Positions 1 to 46,312 of a DNA stretch of 46,312 nucleotides are shown here, piece by piece. The notes under the pieces were generated by a model. That model was not told the origin of the DNA. It did no database searches and worked only from the letters and a program-made list of their open reading frames with translations. The DNA is taken from IMG/VR virus record IMGVR_UViG_3300013016_000007, one strand, 5' to 3'. Both the position numbers and the translations under genes were made by a program. This DNA comes from a virus. Every line of letters begins with the position of its first letter. Positions within the stretch are counted from its first letter, which is position 1.

Positions 1-123
1 ACAATTTTATAGAAAATAAAAATGACCGCCCTTATTAAGAACGGTCATCATAGTTGATATAACAATGGTGCCGAAGGTGGGACTCGAACCCACACGGAGT
101 TGCCCCCAACGGATTTTGAATCC
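1..123. repeat. att direct repeat, left copy (attL side)
   Basis: nt 1-123 identical base-for-base to 46190-46312 by hand comparison. Contains the tRNA 3' part and its terminator. Identity may extend past both window edges. Confidence 0.9.
9..48 (-). terminator. Rho-independent terminator downstream of the tRNA-Leu fragment
   Basis: Minus strand: ATGACCG (48-42) pairs with CGGTCAT (28-22), with inner CTT/AAG pairs, followed by TTTTTATTTTCT. Confidence 0.7.
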
Positions 124-127
124 GTCT
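66..127 (-). pseudogene. Truncated 3' fragment of tRNA-Leu(CAA) at the prophage left junction
   Basis: Reverse complement reads anticodon arm ACGGA-TTCAAAA-TCCGT (anticodon CAA), a long variable arm, T arm GTGGG-TTCGAGT-CCCAC, and acceptor CTTCGGC-A-CCA. No D arm or 5' acceptor strand follows nt 127. Confidence 0.8.
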
Positions 128-269
128 TGTTTATATGTTTAGAATTGAATTGATTTGCACCAGTTTTGATATAACAGCCCTTAAGCCCTTTTTTTAAATT
201 TTATATTTGTTTGTATTTGTTCCAATTTGCATTGTTTTTAAGAAATTTGGGAACACAAATGGAACGTCT

Positions 270-37584: not shown

Positions 37585-37892
37585 TGCAAATGATTGATAC
37601 AACCAAAATTAATTTAAATTTAAATGATGATCTTGAAGAATATCAGGAAGTTATAAGAAATGTAAAAACTATACTTACCACTCCAAAAGGAACAGTTGCT
37701 TTTGATAGAGAATTCGGAATCGACTGGTCTATTCTTGACCAACCGATGGCCCGGGCCAAAGGGCTTTTGACTGCAGAGTATGTTAAACAGGTAAGAAAAT
37801 ATGAACCCAGAGTAAAAGTTACTGAAGTATTATTTGAAGAACCGGATCAAGATGGAGTGTTAATACCTAAGGTGGTGTTAGAAAGTGGCTAA
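37581..37892 (+). CDS. Baseplate wedge protein (gpW / gp25-like)
   Basis: VKTILTTPKGTVAFDREFGIDWSILDQPM. 103 aa. Confidence 0.75.
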   Translation: MMQMIDTTKINLNLNDDLEEYQEVIRNVKTILTTPKGTVAFDREFGIDWSILDQPMARAKGLLTAEYVKQVRKYEPRVKVTEVLFEEPDQDGVLIPKVVLESG

Positions 37893-39033
37893 AATTCAAG
37901 AATTGCAACACTTGCCGGAAATAAATTTTGTAGAAACAGATGTAGAAACTATGCTGGCCGATGCTATAGAAAGTTATGAAAAAGCTTTTTATGATCAAAC
38001 TGGGAAAAAGAAAACCCTTGCCCCAGGTGATCCTGTTCGAATTTGGATTTATTCTCAAGTTTTGAAACAATACCAAACTAATTTGTTAATAGATAAAGTC
38101 GCAAAACAGAATTTGCTTTATTATTCCACAGGCGAAAAGTTAGAACATTTAGCTGCATTGTTAAGTGTCGATAAAGACGGACCGCAAAAAGCGATAACAA
38201 CTATGGAAATTACTCTTTCTGCAGCACAAGATAATGCAGTTCCTATAAAAGCCGGAACCAGAGTTACTCCTGGTAATAATATATTTTTTGAAACTACTGA
38301 ATATCAAGAAGTGCCGGCCGGGTCAACAACCTATGAATTTCAAGTTACTTGTACTGAAGCAGGAACAATTGGCAATGGTTTCACAGCTGGACAGATAGAT
38401 ACTCTTGTTGATCCAATACCTTATACTGAATCAATAACAAATATAGATACAAGTCAGAATGGAGCTGAGGAAGAAAGCGATGAAAGTCTGACCAGAAAAA
38501 CATATTTGAAGCCAGAGTCGTTTTCAGTTGCTGGCCCGGAGGGAGCATATATCTTTTTTGTCAAAGAGTTTAGTCAGAGCATTATTGATGTTGTGCCAAC
38601 TTCTCCATCGCCAGGAGTTGTGGATATTAGATTTATTTTAGAAAATGGAGAATTACCTGACCAGGCAATAATAGATTCTTTAGAAGAATATTTGGATTTC
38701 AAAAAACGAAGGCCACTTACGGATAATGTACAGGTAGGAGCTCCGGTCCAAGTTATGTATGATATAGATTTGACTTATTACATATCTTCAAATGATGAAG
38801 ATATTGCTCAGAATATACAAGATGCAGTTGATCAAGCTATATCTGATTATCAAAAATGGCAAAAAACAAAAATTGGCCGGGATATAAACCCGGATGAACT
38901 TAAAAGTAGAATAAAAGAAGCTGGAGCTAAAAGGTCTGTTGTTGCAGCACCAGTATTTACTCAAGTTCAGAAAACAGAGGTGGCAGCTGCAGCCAATATA
39001 ACTATTAATTATGGAGGTTTAGAAGATGAATAA
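37885..39033 (+). CDS. Baseplate J-like protein
   Basis: 382 aa following the gp25-like gene, with overlapping starts and stops. Confidence 0.75.
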   Translation: MAKIQELQHLPEINFVETDVETMLADAIESYEKAFYDQTGKKKTLAPGDPVRIWIYSQVLKQYQTNLLIDKVAKQNLLYYSTGEKLEHLAALLSVDKDGPQKAITTMEITLSAAQDNAVPIKAGTRVTPGNNIFFETTEYQEVPAGSTTYEFQVTCTEAGTIGNGFTAGQIDTLVDPIPYTESITNIDTSQNGAEEESDESLTRKTYLKPESFSVAGPEGAYIFFVKEFSQSIIDVVPTSPSPGVVDIRFILENGELPDQAIIDSLEEYLDFKKRRPLTDNVQVGAPVQVMYDIDLTYYISSNDEDIAQNIQDAVDQAISDYQKWQKTKIGRDINPDELKSRIKEAGAKRSVVAAPVFTQVQKTEVAAAANITINYGGLEDE

Positions 39034-39766
39034 TAAAATAGATGAAGTTAAACTTATTGAAATCTTACCTCCGAATTTAAGAGAAGATCCGGATATCATA
39101 GCAGCAAGCGAAAGCATAGACGCTGAACATCAAAAAACAGTAAGCAAAATAAATAAAGTTTTAACTGTTGGAGATATTGACAATGCAGAAGAAAAAGTTG
39201 TCGATCATTTAGCGCTGTCAGCTCATGCTGATTATTATGAACTCAGTTTACCAATTGAGAAAAAAAGAAAAATAGCAAAAAAAGCTTATATTTTGCATTA
39301 TACAAAGGGAACTCCTTTTGCGGTCGAACAAATTGTCAGTGATGCATTTGACAACGCTATTGTGGAAGAATGGTTTGAATATGATGGAGACCCTTATTAT
39401 TTCAGAATCCAAGTTGAGGATAGAATAACTGATCAAGAAGTCTTAAGAAAACTACTGAAAGCTATTAACTCAGCAAAAAATAAACGGTCCTGGTTAGAAT
39501 CAGTTAACATTAAGCGCGAAAACATTGCTAATTTATATTTTGCATCTTTTATGCATACTAATCAAAATGTCACTTTAAAACAGATTCCGGTCCAAGATGT
39601 TTATGATCCAGTTAATAATCTTTATGTTGCCGCAGTTAATAGACAATCTAAGGAATTGATTTTAAAACAAATACCTTTGCCCGAGGTTATAGAAAGTTCG
39701 GGCGCATTAAAAGTTGGAGTTGCAAACAGACAAAGTACTTATTTGAAATTATACACGGAGGTGTAA
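39026..39766 (+). CDS. Tail protein I-like (baseplate)
   Basis: N-terminus LIEILPPNLREDPDIIAASESID is typical of the P2 gpI family. Confidence 0.65.
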   Translation: MNNKIDEVKLIEILPPNLREDPDIIAASESIDAEHQKTVSKINKVLTVGDIDNAEEKVVDHLALSAHADYYELSLPIEKKRKIAKKAYILHYTKGTPFAVEQIVSDAFDNAIVEEWFEYDGDPYYFRIQVEDRITDQEVLRKLLKAINSAKNKRSWLESVNIKRENIANLYFASFMHTNQNVTLKQIPVQDVYDPVNNLYVAAVNRQSKELILKQIPLPEVIESSGALKVGVANRQSTYLKLYTEV

Positions 39767-40327
39767 ATGATGGCCCAGTTTAATAGTTTAACGATTACTC
39801 AAGATGGTTTAGAGCTGCAGTCAAAAGCTCAGACTGGTACTACTCTAAATTTTACTAGAGCAGCAGTTGGAGATGGAGAACTGCCGGATGGTACAAATTT
39901 AATTGATTTAAGTTCTTTGATAAATGAAAAGGAGTCTCTTAACCTTACCGATTTATTTGTAGACGGCAGCGGTAATGCTAGAGCCAGAGCTACTGTTTCT
40001 AATCAAGGTTTAGCCACTGGTTTTTATATCAGAGAGATTGGTCTTTTCGCTAACGATCCAGACAAAGGCGAAATTTTATATTGCGTAGCAAACGCCGGGC
40101 AGTATGCTGACTTTTTGCCGGCTGGAACTGGATCAGATATTGTAGAATCTACTCTTGATCTGGTAACTATTGTAGGTAATGCAGAAAATGTTACCGCTCA
40201 AATAGACGAAAGTTTAACTTATGTTACTGTAAAAGATATTAATGACAAATTAGATCTAGAGACTGCTGATCATCAATATAAATTAGTAGTTATTGACGGA
40301 TCACTTGTTTTAGAGGAGGTATTATAA
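39767..40327 (+). CDS. Tail fiber / tail-collar fiber protein
   Basis: MAQFNSLTITQDGLELQSKAQTGTTLNFTRAAVGDGELPDG is a tail-collar fiber type N-terminus. Confidence 0.65.
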   Translation: MMAQFNSLTITQDGLELQSKAQTGTTLNFTRAAVGDGELPDGTNLIDLSSLINEKESLNLTDLFVDGSGNARARATVSNQGLATGFYIREIGLFANDPDKGEILYCVANAGQYADFLPAGTGSDIVESTLDLVTIVGNAENVTAQIDESLTYVTVKDINDKLDLETADHQYKLVVIDGSLVLEEVL

Positions 40328-40645
40328 ATGAAAGGATTTCCTAAAAAATTAAAGACAAAAAAAGATTATGAAAATATCGTCGATGATTTCGGCTACACTC
40401 AAAAAGTAAAAGAAGCTTATCAGGCATTGTTAGAAACTGATCAGCATTATGTATTTGATAAAGAACTGGCAACTGAGGATGAAAGGACTGGCCCGCTCCC
40501 TGATTATAAAATAATGAAAGAAGATGATCAGGAAACCGAGACGGTTAAAATTGTTCAGTATAAATTAGTAGATAACCCTGACTCAAAGCTCAAAGAGTTA
40601 GGATTTACAGAATCTGAAGTTCAAGAGGTGATTGACTTATGCTAA
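40328..40645 (+). CDS. Hypothetical fiber-module protein
   Basis: 105 aa, acidic. Overlaps the start of the DGR target gene. Confidence 0.5.
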   Translation: MKGFPKKLKTKKDYENIVDDFGYTQKVKEAYQALLETDQHYVFDKELATEDERTGPLPDYKIMKEDDQETETVKIVQYKLVDNPDSKLKELGFTESEVQEVIDLC

Positions 40646-41685
40646 GTGTAGTAGGAGTAGATAGTCCTGCTTTTTACAACGCTGAAGGAAACATAGAAAA
40701 GACAACCGGAGTCCAGGGAGTAGATATTCCGGCCCTGGCATTAAGAATTAATAGGCAGAACTTAAAAATTGAATCAGCATCAGCACTAACTGCCTCAGAC
40801 AATGATGGCAGTTTTTCTAGTTTTGCGATGGGTACAGATTATTATATCTATGCCTGTCAACCAGCTGATGGTATTGAGCCAGACTTTGTGCTTTCGGCTA
40901 ACTCTACTTATCCAGATACAATTCCTTCTGGAGTTACGCCCAGTGCTGATAACACTCGGAAGATTGGTGGCTTTCATTATGGCCGGGTAAGGAACAGTTC
41001 TACAGCTTCTGATGTATCAGAAAGCATTGTACCTAACTCAGTTTGGGACCTTGTTAATCGTCCTAAATGTTCCCCTGAGGGGATGGCTAAGGTAGGAAAC
41101 CTTTGGGTAGATATTTATCTGGCATCTGATGATGGTAACGGTGGTGTTGAATCAAAATATAATGCGACACCTATAACCGGAACTGAAGGCTTAAGCTGGT
41201 ACAGTTTCGCTGAAAGGTTTGCCAAAGTTGATAAGAGGATGGCATCAATGTCAGAGTGGACAGCATTAGCTCAGGGCAGTCCTCAGGGTAACGATGGTGA
41301 CAATGTCAATGCCTGGTCTGCTACCAGCAACAGCAGTAGAACTGCAACTGGTACTGTAACCAATGCTATCAGTAATTATAATATTGTCGATTGTGCTGGT
41401 AATGTGTATGAGTGGTTGGATGAACTTTCTATTAGACAGGATAGTTCAGTGACTACCGACTGGCGCTGGTATGATCCCGATACTGACTTTGATGAAAGCA
41501 TCGAAAGCAATTGGAATGAGTTAGGAGATTTATATCTACCTAATGATAATGGTCTTACTGCTTTCAGAGCAGGTGGCGGCTGGGACTATGGTGTCCGCTG
41601 CGGTGCTCGTTCGGTCGACGTGGGCTACCGACCGTGGGGCGTGTTCTCGCTCCGCGGGTCTCGTGGTGTCTGTGATCCTCTGTAA
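40639..41685 (+). CDS. DGR target protein: receptor-binding tail fiber with C-terminal variable (C-type-lectin-like) region
   Basis: 348 aa. The last ~38 codons (AGGGWDYGVRCGARSVDVGYRPWGVFSLRGSRGVCDPL) form the VR. It is the last gene of the fiber module. Confidence 0.88.
   Translation: MLSVVGVDSPAFYNAEGNIEKTTGVQGVDIPALALRINRQNLKIESASALTASDNDGSFSSFAMGTDYYIYACQPADGIEPDFVLSANSTYPDTIPSGVTPSADNTRKIGGFHYGRVRNSSTASDVSESIVPNSVWDLVNRPKCSPEGMAKVGNLWVDIYLASDDGNGGVESKYNATPITGTEGLSWYSFAERFAKVDKRMASMSEWTALAQGSPQGNDGDNVNAWSATSNSSRTATGTVTNAISNYNIVDCAGNVYEWLDELSIRQDSSVTTDWRWYDPDTDFDESIESNWNELGDLYLPNDNGLTAFRAGGGWDYGVRCGARSVDVGYRPWGVFSLRGSRGVCDPL
41569..41685 (+). repeat. DGR variable repeat (VR) with IMH at its 3' end
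   Basis: nt 41570-41674 align without gaps to 42087-42191 (offset 517). There are 18 mismatches, all at TR adenines. The A-free GC-rich block CGGGTCTCGTGGTGTCTGTG is identical in both copies. Confidence 0.93.
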
Positions 41686-41767
41686 TTCGTGATTTGATAA
41701 TCTGTCTTTTTATAAGGTGTGAATACTTATCAAAAATTTTACAATACATCAAAAAGTATATGATTTT

Positions 41768-42064
41768 ATGGTTTGGTTTTTCCCGATTGTAGATAACTTT
41801 CCGAAGTACGAAAAATTTGTACTTTGTACTCAAATTAAGAATTCAATACTTGATATCTCAAAAATTATTATTGAAGCAAATAAATCTAGAGGTAGCAAAG
41901 TTAGATTTCTGCACCGGGTAGATGTCAGACTTGAACAATTAAGAATGCTGATCAGATTTTCTCACAAAAGAAGATATTTAAATGATTCTAAATATGAAAA
42001 TGCATCTAAAAAAGTCAATGAAATAGGCCGCATGCTTGGAGGTTGGATCAAGTCGTGCGATTAA
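41768..42064 (+). CDS. avd: Accessory variability determinant (Avd), four-helix-bundle family
   Basis: ...VYDFMVWFFPIVDNFPKYEKFVLCTQIKNSILDISKIIIEANKSR... matches the Avd pattern. The frame is open from 41723 and the conserved helix 1 begins upstream of the first ATG (41768). Confidence 0.8.
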   Translation: MVWFFPIVDNFPKYEKFVLCTQIKNSILDISKIIIEANKSRGSKVRFLHRVDVRLEQLRMLIRFSHKRRYLNDSKYENASKKVNEIGRMLGGWIKSCD

Positions 42065-42085
42065 ATATTTGGGGTTAAGAGCGTT

Positions 42086-42200
42086 ACAGGTGGCAACTGG
42101 AACAATGGTGTCCACTGCGGTGCTCGTTCGGTCAACGTGAACAACCAACCGTGGAACGTGAACTCGAACAACGGGTCTCGTGGTGTCTGTGCTCTTCATG
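42086..42200 (+). repeat. DGR template repeat (TR) with IMH*-like 3' end
   Basis: Non-coding, starting 22 nt after the avd stop. Has 24 adenines in 42087-42191. In the VR frame it reads (ACA) GGT GGC AAC TGG AAC AAT ... with nine AAC codons. Confidence 0.93.
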
Positions 42201-42371
42201 CAAAAATCTTTCAGACAGTAGTGGTTACGGCCACTGCTGCAGTGTTTCTAGAAATGAGGAACAGGCTTTTAATCCCTGCTGAGATACTTTTTAAGTCAAT
42301 CCAGCAAAAAATTTAGATTGCTGGCCAGGCAGCAAGTATTGAAAAATAGAAAGTTGTCACAGTCAGCGACT

Positions 42372-42403
42372 GCCCGTTCTCATTTGAGCGGGCTTTTAAT
42401 TTT
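42372..42403 (+). terminator. Terminator-like hairpin between TR and the RT gene
   Basis: GCCCGTTC (42372-42379) pairs with GAGCGGGC (42386-42393): 8 bp including one G-U pair, 6-nt loop, then TTTTAATTTT. Confidence 0.5.
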
Positions 42404-42432
42404 CACCCACAAATAAAGAAAGTGGTGATAAT

Positions 42433-43545
42433 ATTCCAAAAAAATTTAAAAATTTATATCCTAAAATATATAACTTTTCAAACTTATTAGTTTCTTATGA
42501 AAATGCTAGAAAATCTAAACGATATACTAATCAAGTTCTTGAATTTACTAATCAGTTAGAAAGTAATTTAATCAACCTTCAAAACCAGCTTATCTGGAAA
42601 GAATATTTACCTGGTGAATATCATCAATTCTATGTTTATGAACCTAAGCAGAGGTTAGTTATGGCACTTCCTTTTGAAGATAGAGTGGTCCAGTGGGCTG
42701 TATATAGAAACCTAAACCCTATATTTGATAAAACTTTTTATGAACATAGTTGTGCCTGCCGGATTGGCAAAGGTACTCATTATGCAGCAGACCAGCTGCA
42801 GCACTGGATGAGAAAACTCGACAGGAGCCCAGGGAAAACTTATTATCTCAAAGCTGATGTTGCAAAATATTTCTACAGGATAGATCACAGAACTCTTTTC
42901 GAAATAATCAAAAGAAAGATTGGCTGCAGAGATACTTTAGAGCTGATCTGGAAAATTATCAAAAAAGATGATGGTGAATTTGGGATACATCTCGGTGATC
43001 ATTACTTTGAAAGGGATAAAATTAAAGGAATTGGAATCCCAATTGGTAACTTAACCAGTCAATTATTTGCTAATGTTTATCTAGATTTTATGGATAAATT
43101 CATTAAACATAATTTGAGAGTGAAGCACTATGTAAGATATATGGATGATTTCGTTATCCTGGGAAAATCAAAGAAAGAACTACATACAATTAGACAGGAG
43201 ATAGAAATATTTCTTGCTGATTATCTAAAATTAGAACTTAACAATAAAACTACCGTGGACAATATCTGGAATGGTATAGATTTCTGCGGATATGTTACTT
43301 ATCCACCATATAGAAAATTGAGAAAAAGTACAAAGAGAAAACTGAAAAGGCGGCTTAAATATCTTCAGAAAAAGTATTATAAAGAGGAGGTGGAGATCGA
43401 TGAAATAAATGCCAGTGTTCAAAGCTATTTAGGAATATTAAAACATTGTAATAGCCATAATCTGACAATGTCAGTTATTGGCCAGTTAGAAGATGAAATA
43501 CTTAATCAACTAGATTTAGATGACGTACGAGAACAAAGAAGTTGA
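42433..43545 (+). CDS. DGR reverse transcriptase
   Basis: EPKQRLVMALPFEDRVVQ, YYLKADVAKYFYRIDH, IGNLTSQLFANVYL ([LIV]GxxxSQ), RYMDDFVILG (YxDD). The frame is open from 42400. There is no in-frame ATG/GTG/TTG before 42661, so the start is shown at ATT 42433 (uncertain). Confidence 0.9.
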   Translation: MPKKFKNLYPKIYNFSNLLVSYENARKSKRYTNQVLEFTNQLESNLINLQNQLIWKEYLPGEYHQFYVYEPKQRLVMALPFEDRVVQWAVYRNLNPIFDKTFYEHSCACRIGKGTHYAADQLQHWMRKLDRSPGKTYYLKADVAKYFYRIDHRTLFEIIKRKIGCRDTLELIWKIIKKDDGEFGIHLGDHYFERDKIKGIGIPIGNLTSQLFANVYLDFMDKFIKHNLRVKHYVRYMDDFVILGKSKKELHTIRQEIEIFLADYLKLELNNKTTVDNIWNGIDFCGYVTYPPYRKLRKSTKRKLKRRLKYLQKKYYKEEVEIDEINASVQSYLGILKHCNSHNLTMSVIGQLEDEILNQLDLDDVREQRS

Positions 43546-43608
43546 TGCGATATACAGATAAGCAAATACTTTTGCCTTGTAGCGGGGCTTGGTTTGAGGT
43601 GAAAACAC

Positions 43609-44070
43609 GTGAATGCAAAATGGAGACCATTTTTAGACGAAATAATTTATTACTGGAACAAATTTTTTGAGCATACATTTATTAAAAGTTTTCTTGCGGT
43701 GGGGGGCACATTGCTGACTATGATGTTTGGAGATATGAATGCAGCTATGCAGGGTTTTTTAATTTTGTTGGCAGCAGATTATATGACAGGAATTATCAAA
43801 GCAAGCAAAAAAGGTCAGCTATCTAGCTGGATGTCCCGAAAAGGTTGGGGTAAAATAGCAACTTATGCTATTGTAATATCTCTTGGCCATCTGGTAACCC
43901 AAATAGGTATGAAAGGAATGAGAGATTTTGTTCTACTTTGGGCCGGGGCAACTGAAGCAATTTCTATTTTAGAAAACTGCGATGAACTCGGTGTTGCTAT
44001 TCCTGAATTTATGCGCGAAAAACTTTTAAGAACGAAAGAAAATAAATTTGGAGAGGAGATCAATCAATGA
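43609..44070 (+). CDS. Holin (phage_holin_4 / TcdE-like family)
   Basis: FLILLAADYMTGIIKASKKGQLSSWMSRKGWGKIATYAIV...ATEAISILENCDELG. Three hydrophobic segments. GTG start after GAGGTGA. Confidence 0.85.
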   Translation: MNAKWRPFLDEIIYYWNKFFEHTFIKSFLAVGGTLLTMMFGDMNAAMQGFLILLAADYMTGIIKASKKGQLSSWMSRKGWGKIATYAIVISLGHLVTQIGMKGMRDFVLLWAGATEAISILENCDELGVAIPEFMREKLLRTKENKFGEEINQ

Positions 44071-44549
44071 AAGTTGTAGATGTTAGAGATAAGTTACCAA
44101 CTCATAATTCCAAGAGATATCCAACCAGACCTCTTTCTGCTATATATTATATAGCGGTACATCACAGTCTTACAGATAACATACCAGGTGGTGAAGATGT
44201 CAAGGCTTTTGCAAGATATCATGTCAATAATTTAGACTGGCCGGGCATTGGATATCATTATGTGATTGACACTGACGGAACTGTATATAAGACTAACGCA
44301 GCCAAAACAAAAAGTTATCATGTAGGAAAACATAATCAATCAGCTTTAGGGGTTTGTTTAGTTGGTGATTTTAGAGATTATGACCCAACAGACAAACAGT
44401 ACCAGGCTCTTGTTGAGTTACTAAAAACTTTGCAAGATGCTTATGGCATAACTACCGAAAATATCAAAGGCCACAGCGAATTTGAAGGTTACAAATGGAA
44501 GAAATGTCCTGAGATAGATATGGATCAACTAAGAAAAGAGGTTGAATGA
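44067..44549 (+). CDS. Endolysin: N-acetylmuramoyl-L-alanine amidase (Amidase_2/PGRP), catalytic domain only
   Basis: YIAVHHS, WPGIGYHYVIDTDGTVYKT, HVGKHNQSALGVCLVGDF, KGHSEF...KCP. 160 aa, no wall-binding domain. Confidence 0.88.
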   Translation: MKVVDVRDKLPTHNSKRYPTRPLSAIYYIAVHHSLTDNIPGGEDVKAFARYHVNNLDWPGIGYHYVIDTDGTVYKTNAAKTKSYHVGKHNQSALGVCLVGDFRDYDPTDKQYQALVELLKTLQDAYGITTENIKGHSEFEGYKWKKCPEIDMDQLRKEVE

Positions 44550-44763
44550 TATGACTGAAGATGAAAAGAAAGAATTAAAAGGAAGATTACTTTCATTTGT
44601 CTCTAGAAAGTTTTTGATAGCTCTAGTTATTCTGATAGCTTCTACTGTAATGGTTATGAAAAATCAATTAGATGCGACCCAGTGGCTTGGTATAGTTACT
44701 GCAGATCTTTTAACTTATGATTTTTCAAATGCTTACTCAAAAAAAGCAAAAAAGGAGTGGTAA
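44542..44763 (+). CDS. Small membrane protein (lysis-associated?)
   Basis: 73 aa. Hydrophobic segment FLIALVILIASTVMVM. Overlaps the endolysin stop. Confidence 0.55.
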   Translation: MNDMTEDEKKELKGRLLSFVSRKFLIALVILIASTVMVMKNQLDATQWLGIVTADLLTYDFSNAYSKKAKKEW

Positions 44764-46158: not shown

Positions 46159-46197
46159 ATGTAAAAATATGGAATGGAACAATCCGGGAACAATTTT

Positions 46198-46237
46198 ATA
46201 GAAAATAAAAATGACCGCCCTTATTAAGAACGGTCAT
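46198..46237 (-). terminator. Rho-independent terminator of tRNA-Leu (right copy)
   Basis: Same hairpin and T-run as at 9-48, inside the att repeat. Confidence 0.7.
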
Positions 46238-46254
46238 CATAGTTGATATAACAA

Positions 46255-46312
46255 TGGTGCCGAAGGTGGGACTCGAACCCACACGGAGTTGCCCCCAACG
46301 GATTTTGAATCC
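46255..46312 (-). tRNA. tRNA-Leu(CAA), 3' portion; the gene continues beyond the window end
   Basis: Same sequence as 66-123: CCA end, acceptor strand, T arm, long variable arm, anticodon loop TTCAAAA. Probably the intact copy, because the left copy lacks a 5' half. Confidence 0.75.

Follow-up and report, generated by a model that had tools for sequence, protein, structure and literature searches.

An active BPP-1-type diversity-generating retroelement in a phage very probably of Halanaerobium, with AUC and AUU as likely starts of its enzyme genes

The diversity-generating retroelement (DGR) of phage BPP-1 is the prototype of its class. In this phage a fibre gene is followed by mtd, avd, the template repeat (TR), the reverse transcriptase (RT) gene brt and the lysis genes, and 23 mutable adenines allow about 1e13 protein variants (PMC5758913). 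The closest deposited phage to the element described here is Bacillus phage BalMu-1 (NC_030945, gp50-gp53), which carries the same order of target, avd, TR, RT, holin and endolysin. The present analysis deals with a DGR on the IMG/VR virus record IMGVR_UViG_3300013016_000007, of which the whole stretch of 46,312 nt was analysed and is referred to as the window. An earlier note on this DNA had proposed a complete element of target, avd, TR and RT at 40639-43545 on the + strand, arranged as in BPP-1 between the tail fibres and the lysis genes; all four parts were found within these limits, with correct coordinates, and the order and position are those of BPP-1 and BalMu-1. The class is already known and the element is of the prototype kind, namely a new Mtd-type phage DGR. 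Taken as a whole, the locus is almost certainly an active BPP-1-type DGR in a temperate myovirus of Halanaerobium, whose enzyme genes most likely start at AUC and AUU codons.

The repeats, the proteins and the variation found in nature

A repeat search returned the variable repeat (VR) and the TR as the longest direct repeat in 40000-44000 (41570-41680/42087-42197), and at the offset of 517 nt between them the letters agree at 96 of 140 positions, compared with 23-43 for offsets nearby. Their alignment bears out the VR/TR pair read by the earlier note: 105 nt align without a gap, and the 18 mismatches all fall on TR adenines, of which 18 out of 24 are changed (hypergeometric P 1.7e-15 given the composition of the TR). 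All 18 lie at codon positions 1-2 of the target frame. As had also been noted, the TR is non-coding and begins about 22 nt past the avd stop codon (42062-42064); when translated in the VR frame it reads GGNWNNGVHCGARSVNVNNQPWNVNSNNGSRGVC, the usual AAC-rich template of DGRs. Twelve codons of the target are variable (residues 314, 316, 317, 320, 327, 329, 330, 331, 334, 336, 338 and 339). A scan of both strands of the window gave no second or remote VR and no other TR-like copy.

Natural variants of the target were found through its 90%-identity protein cluster (n = 18 sequences), while exact scans of viral and metagenome contig collections with the TR, carrying N at each adenine, gave no match. 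Eight members of the cluster are 348 aa long; six of the seven others equal the window protein over residues 1-313 and differ from it only at 12 VR positions, which are exactly the codons with an adenine in the TR. At the nucleotide level, three contigs from other samples, two from ENA assemblies and one from a JGI metagenome, were compared with window positions 37639-44685 (7,047 nt). They showed 16, 19 and 16 differences, respectively. Each of these lies in the VR at a position where the TR has an adenine, and the four sampled genomes share one and the same TR. Across the four, 23 of the 24 TR adenines vary, within 12 codons, so that 7e13 DNA variants and 1.15e13 protein variants are possible, with as many mutable adenines as in BPP-1. 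Because otherwise identical genomes from other samples differ in the VR at TR adenines only, the DGR of the window is currently active. Activity had been guessed earlier from the diverged VR, with an invariant VR named as the observation that would speak against it; the population variants demonstrate it directly. As a DGR the element adds little, but the evidence of its activity in nature is unusually clean.

The adenine-only pattern of VR/TR mismatches recurs in every relative (related loci are given here by L numbers). The sister elements L007 and L017 differ at 18 positions, 17 of which are VR positions with an adenine in the TR. L004 and L013 share an identical TR and differ at 15 VR positions, all of them TR adenines, with 35 more differences elsewhere in the locus. 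In BalMu-1, 10 of the 11 VR/TR mismatches fall on TR adenines. A separate observation concerns L015 (IMGVR_UViG_3300011189_000204), which has no avd and carries an adenine-mutated VR-like sequence directly upstream of the spacer, where L020 has its TR; this arrangement is either a deletion by VR/TR recombination or an assembly collapse across the repeat.

By sequence comparison, the three DGR proteins are directly homologous to Mtd, Avd and Brt of BPP-1. The earlier note had placed the VR in the final ~38 codons of a 348-aa open reading frame (ORF) closing the fibre module, which proved to be the case. This protein matches the Pfam family PF21916 mtd_2nd, the second domain of Mtd (5e-19), and a PHROG tail protein family (1.6e-56), and shows 26% identity over 335 aa with BPP-1 Mtd by BLASTP (E 1e-19); the two C-termini align as GSRGVCDPL and GARGVCDHL. 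An AlphaFold2 model built with 45 homologues reached a mean predicted local distance difference test (pLDDT) score of 89.9, and its top structural matches were the five Mtd crystal structures 1yu0-1yu4 (template modelling score 0.69-0.74), followed by TaqVP, TvpA and FGE/EgtB folds. In the model, then, the VR sits at the C-terminus of a ligand-binding protein with a C-type lectin fold, as is seen in DGRs, and the target is a full-length Mtd homologue, unlike the target of BalMu-1, which is annotated as SUMF1/FGE-type.

The Avd-like ORF of the earlier note is borne out by the NCBIfam equivalog for DGR Avd, NF033474 (122.1 bits, cut-off 80; the match begins at residue 5), and by Pfam bAvd (1e-32). 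The RT carries all the peptide motifs that had been quoted, including IGNLTSQ and YMDD. By BLASTP it is 34% identical to Brt (E 2e-63), with the first residue of the one aligned to the first residue of the other, and it shares 51% identity with the RT of BalMu-1; its best sequence match in the PDB is 8ub7_A at 1.3e-53, with group II RTs at 1e-21. Residues R74 and I181 of Brt promote adenine mutagenesis (PMC7826257), and in the BLASTP alignment both are conserved in the window RT, I181 being the first Ile of IGxxxSQ. The protein is consequently classed by sequence as a DGR-clade enzyme, with Brt as the best-matching characterised RT.

Table 1. Position of the features of the retroelement and of the adjoining ORF in the window
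Feature	Position	Strand	Remarks
Target gene, Mtd-like receptor-binding tail protein	40639..41685	+	348 aa; last gene of the tail-fibre module
VR	41570..41674	+	final ~38 codons of the target; aligned with the TR without a gap
VR 3' end CGGGTCTCGTGGTGTCTGTG, similar to an initiation of mutagenic homing (IMH) site	41655..41674	+	20 nt, adenine-free, G+C-rich; identical in VR and TR
VR-specific 3' flank	41675..41713	+	one perfect ATCTG (41696-41700); degenerate 7-8-nt repeats ending CTG/TCG/TTG
avd	41729..42064	+	111 aa; probable start ATC 41729; Shine-Dalgarno (SD) site AAGGTG at 41714-41719
TR	42087..42191	+	non-coding; 24 adenines, 23 of them (42095-42171) varying in natural VRs
TR-RT spacer, predicted structured RNA	42192..42432	+	hairpin 42216-42239; helices 42277-42288/42294-42306 and 42319-42333/42353-42368; hairpin 42372-42393
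Terminator-like hairpin GCCCGTTC-TCATTT-GAGCGGGC	42372-42393, T-run to 42403	+	from a terminator scan; directly before the RT SD site
DGR RT	42433..43545	+	370 aa; probable start ATT 42433; stop 43543-45
105-aa ORF	40328-40645		between the tail-collar fibre gene and the Mtd-like gene; 7-nt overlap with the mtd start

Start codons of avd and of the reverse transcriptase gene

The Avd and RT peptides quoted in the earlier note are present, but it went unnoticed there that no canonical start codon stands where they begin: neither gene has an ATG, GTG or TTG at its homologous N-terminus. When ORFs are called mechanically, avd begins at ATG 41768 and is 98 aa long, and the RT begins at ATG 42661 and is 294 aa long. 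The public gene calls for the phage (L104-L106) give the same 98-aa Avd and 294-aa RT, at coordinates equivalent to window 41768-42064 and 42661-43545, and are truncated because gene callers accept ATG, GTG and TTG only. The alignments with Pfam, NCBIfam, PDB and Brt begin upstream of these codons, by 13 codons for avd and 76 for the RT, and starting at the ATGs would cost the proteins 13 and 76 conserved residues, respectively. At the N-terminus, I1-P-K-K of the RT aligns with M1-G-K-R of Brt.

Among the + strand genes of the window, only avd (15) and the RT (87) have sense codons upstream of the first canonical start for which an overlap with the gene before them does not account. Across relatives, differences at codon positions 1/2/3 range from 8/2/17 to 25/9/42 in the upstream codons of the RT, and from 2/0/1 to 3/1/8 in the first 13 codons of avd. 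With this third-position bias, the codons upstream of the first canonical starts evolve like coding sequence.

The unusual start is shared by a clade. In every locus with at least 67% RT identity, comprising 8 clusters at 90% aa identity and RT genes 66-92% identical in DNA, the homologous RT start codon is ATT or ATC, has an SD match a short way upstream and is followed by CCN AAR, so that the non-canonical start is kept down to 67% aa identity of the RT. The outgroups have ATG, TTG or GTG one codon downstream. The next canonical codon has no conserved place and lies 17 to 76 codons further on. In avd the homologous codon is ATC in the window group, ATT in the L003 group, ATA in L014 and TTG in the L002 group. 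L112 has TTG at the homologous RT start codon, directly after an in-frame TGA, and 14 of 49 outgroup clusters start their RT with TTG. Both reference systems differ from the window in this respect, since the RT of BPP-1 uses ATG, and BalMu-1 uses ATG for both avd and RT.

Ahead of the RT lies an extended SD site, GAAAGTGGTGAT, at 42418-42429. Some database RT calls begin M-I-I-P-K-K, with the called GTG, ATG or TTG lying within or abutting the SD of the locus. Across the loci, 3-5 nt separate the ATY codon from the SD motif TGAT, independent of the reading frame of the [A/G]TG that the SD contains. With its frame varying and its distance to ATY kept at 3-5 nt, the [A/G]TG would act as part of the SD and not as a start codon. 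The genes thus most likely start at ATC 41729 (avd) and ATT 42433 (RT), behind good SD sites. For avd, a GTG-TGA start at 41717 with recoding of the TGA was considered and dropped, as relatives place ATT right after TGA or TAA-type stops.

In E. coli, initiation at AUU, AUC or AUA reaches about 1-2% of that at AUG (bioRxiv 10.1101/063800), and in Enterococcus an ATT start attenuates EbpA expression (PMC4447247). By analogy, low levels of Avd and RT are the likely consequence of the AUC and AUU starts. The AUU-attenuated genes infC and pcnB of E. coli and ebpA of E. faecalis combine a rare AUU or AUC start with a good SD, as is proposed here, and for ebpA the annotated downstream ATG was wrong (PMC4447247), as is proposed for avd and RT of the window. 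Unlike these genes, the present case would involve two adjacent genes of one retroelement and a trait that is kept throughout a clade of phages. Searches of the literature for DGRs together with start-codon terms, of incomplete coverage, returned no paper linking DGRs to non-canonical starts. Possible non-canonical starts were also observed in distant DGRs, in the RT of L070, L090 and L054 and in avd of L071, L103, L084/L085 and L048; the candidates are ATC or ATT after AAGGAGG, an ACG that follows AAGGAGG and has a stop four codons upstream, and a GTA.

Signals beside the variable and template repeats

Beyond the IMH-like block shared by the two repeats, the flanks diverge, into ATCCTCTGTAA after the VR and CTCTTCATGC after the TR. 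An IMH at the VR and a non-identical IMH* at the TR are therefore present, with a function that is predicted. The junction pattern is shared with BPP-1, in which the VR side reads GTCTGTG/A.. and the TR side GTCTGTG/C..CTTC.TGCATG.

The flank after the VR carries a further feature. In 66 distinct loci of the RT family, 128 copies of ATCTG were counted in the 80 nt after the VR and none in the 80 nt after the TR, which gives 22 per kb after the VR compared with 1.3 per kb over whole loci. The repeats were noted in the window at 41675-41713 and in L001, L002, L014 and L034-L103. Their spacing is 7, 8, 15-16 or 21-23 nt, and they therefore form tandem 7-8-nt repeats, located between the IMH and the hairpin that follows the VR in part of the family. 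The array of the window is degenerate, whereas BalMu-1 has three clean copies after its VR; BPP-1 shows a faint echo, CACCTGATTCTTGAG. We hypothesize that the ATCTG repeats take part in target recognition. A literature search with IMH or mutagenic homing and repeat terms, again of incomplete coverage, gave no description of them.

On the template side, the spacer between TR and RT is predicted to form a structured RNA. In the covariation analysis, 26 pairs were scored with 96.5% of cells paired and compensatory changes at 9 pairs; none of 500 shuffles reached the observed values, and slid controls were 28-44% paired. A long-range helix proposed by RNAalifold, joining the region after the first hairpin with the RT SD, consisted almost entirely of G-U pairs and was dropped. 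No Rfam family matched the window at gathering thresholds. A permissive search aligned 42192-42366 with the full length (positions 1-144) of RF02921 RT-14, at 37.4 bits and E 1e-3. The match begins at the first base after the TR, and all three helices are common to the window and the model. The spacers of eight relatives, BalMu-1 included (70 bits), pass the RT-14 threshold with 55-71 bits. Weinberg et al. (2017) assigned only RT-10 to a DGR and regarded a DGR role of the other RT motifs as speculative (PMC5737381). From these matches RT-14, so far an orphan RT-associated motif, would be the DGR spacer RNA directly 3' of the TR. BPP-1 differs here, its spacer RNA being RF03022 Phage_DGR.

The terminator-like hairpin at the end of the spacer, which most of the clade keeps, may terminate the TR-spacer RNA and restrain read-through into the RT.

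Competing readings and the biology of the phage

Several points weigh against the reading of the locus as an active DGR with AUC and AUU starts. The ATC/ATT initiation is a prediction from sequence, and L110, L111, L113 and L114 have an in-frame GTG or ATG three codons upstream, within or abutting the SD, the use of which as a start in these loci is possible. The RT-14 score of the spacer, 37.4 bits, is below the gathering score of 48.1. Diversification of the VR could in principle be due to another DGR of the same host acting in trans; H. saccharolyticum carries two DGR loci, L002 and L004. Finally, a GC hairpin or cruciform after the VR is absent at 41660-41735 (DNA fold of -3.1 kcal/mol, z -0.93). 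For efficient homing, BPP-1 depends on a GC hairpin that follows the VR and has a GRNA loop (PMC3240598); in that phage the hairpin is CGGGGCC-GAAA-GGCCCCG. A hairpin is likewise kept in BalMu-1 (GGTA loop) and in the L002 group (GATA loop), and no stable one is found in L007, L004 and L014. Its absence from the window is unremarkable, given that only 34% of DGRs have, 4-34 bp after the VR, a GC-rich inverted repeat with a GRNA loop (PMC5758913), and the element is active despite it.

That VR and TR are an ordinary duplication, altered by point mutation or gene conversion, beside an unrelated retron, group II intron or Abi/Drt enzyme has next to no chance of being correct. GenBank labels the BalMu-1 homologue as 'retron-type', and NCBIfam models of group II, retron and Drt enzymes do match the RT; these matches are weak, however, and stay far below the curated cut-offs (132 vs 300 for group II TIGR04416, 43 vs 235 for retron St85 and 44 vs 200 for Drt3a), in agreement with the earlier view that set the enzyme apart from group II intron and retron RTs. 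The [I]GxxxSQ motif, Brt as the best characterised match and the adjacent Avd equivalog speak for a DGR instead, and the duplication is already refuted by the confinement of 18 out of 18 mismatches to TR adenines (P ~1e-15), a pattern that comes back in every relative and in the population variants. There is a very slight probability that the locus is the relic of a DGR, in which avd and RT are pseudogenes or are truncated to the products of ATG 41768 and ATG 42661, and the VR/TR differences are fossil. Such a state would explain why ATG, GTG and TTG are lacking at both homologous N-termini and why public calls yield 98-aa and 294-aa products, but not why the VR differs among otherwise identical genomes of different samples. 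Moreover, the missing-start state is conserved over lineages whose RT genes are only 66-92% identical in nucleotides, the supposedly untranslated N-terminal codons are under coding constraint, and no conserved position is seen for the next canonical codon, 17 to 76 codons downstream.

It is also very unlikely that the RT is translated from the out-of-frame GTG 42425 (GTG ATA ATA TTC CAA AAA AAT) with a programmed -1 frameshift on the A7 run A_AAA_AAT (42437-42445). A GTG does lie 8 nt upstream of the ATT, and in the window, L007-L012 and L002 it is followed by a canonical slippery heptamer; some gene calls of relatives start M-I-I-P-K-K. Yet GTG 42425 belongs to the SD match GAAAGTGGTGAT, as seen against the anti-SD complement GAAAGGAGGTGAT of the Firmicute 16S 3' end, and has no SD upstream. 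L003 lacks the A-run (ATC CCG AAG AAA), L014 and L020 have it interrupted, and from lineage to lineage the [A/G]TG stands in different frames with respect to the RT while its distance to the ATY stays at 3-5 nt.

With an active DGR as the preferred reading, a mechanism can be drawn by homology with BPP-1. A transcript with the TR and the structured spacer would be bound by the complex of Avd and RT, and the RT would copy the TR into complementary DNA (cDNA) with misincorporation opposite adenines. The cDNA would then take the place of the VR in the 3' end of the gene for the Mtd-like tail protein, its integration being anchored at the IMH, which is free of adenine and GC-rich. The randomised adenines, 23 in 12 codons, allow about 1e13 protein variants at the receptor-binding face. 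The weak starts, AUC for avd and AUU for the RT, each with a good SD, would keep the mutagenic machinery scarce. On balance, we lean slightly towards a wider proposal for the Halanaerobium-type DGR clade, in which the RT start has been replaced by AUU or AUC, and that of avd mostly by AUC, AUU or AUA and otherwise by UUG, as a hard-wired translational throttle on an active mutagenic retroelement, possibly responsive to IF3, with the hairpin before the RT setting a low ratio of RT to template RNA. Separately, the same proposal holds that the VR-side ATCTG repeats of the wider Firmicute-phage family are perhaps an undescribed cis element of target recognition.

The host of the phage is very probably Halanaerobium, because its closest genomic relatives sit in Halanaerobium saccharolyticum, H. 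salsuginis and a Halanaerobiales metagenome-assembled genome. A literature search for DGRs in Halanaerobium, of incomplete coverage, found no earlier description. BalMu-1 is the only deposited phage showing DNA similarity to the window. The left end of the window holds an integrase and an S24 repressor, and elsewhere there are a gpA-type terminase, a lambda-type portal, a sheath and baseplate J. From the integrase, repressor, sheath and baseplate J genes the phage is temperate with a contractile tail, as the earlier note had supposed. A contractile tail and a host that is a Firmicute-like halophilic anaerobe set the system apart from BPP-1. The window ends in an exact direct repeat of 123 nt (1-123 and 46190-46312) and is therefore a circularly assembled genome of ~46.19 kb. 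Two sister contigs (46,288 and 46,330 nt) carry the DGR at other offsets, which fits circular permutation. A sub-threshold tRNA match was seen at window 69-178 on the - strand (Rfam 22.3 bits vs 29, E 0.02), adjoining the integrase (270-1427, - strand); ARAGORN found no tRNA there. The match resembles the 3' portion of a tRNA with a long arm and probably forms the attP core, and the attP of BPP-1 is likewise identical to a tRNA 3' end.

Around the DGR, the genes run from a tail-collar fibre protein through the 105-aa ORF and the DGR itself to a holin and an amidase. The 105-aa ORF has no match in Pfam, NCBIfam or PHROG, and may be a fibre adaptor or assembly factor; ORFs of similar size are called at the same position in related loci (103 aa in L109). 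A promoter scan of 40200-44200 gave 13 sites compared with 13.4 in shuffled sequence, and hence no excess.

For specialists, the locus offers three side results: the conserved weak starts, RT-14 as the probable spacer RNA of DGRs and the VR-side ATCTG repeats. Gene callers limited to ATG, GTG and TTG cut avd (98 vs 111 aa) and the RT (294 vs 370 aa), DGR finders that accept ATG only will do likewise, and catalogues therefore mis-describe the clade. Through the match of the spacers, an Rfam family that was an orphan until now is tied to the spacer position of DGRs. The ATCTG arrays bear on how the cDNA of a DGR locates and replaces the VR, and their family includes a culturable system, BalMu-1 in Bacillus alcalophilus. 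If confirmed, initiation at AUU and AUC would mean that two neighbouring genes have non-canonical starts, which is rare, and would point to dosage control of a mutagenic RT.

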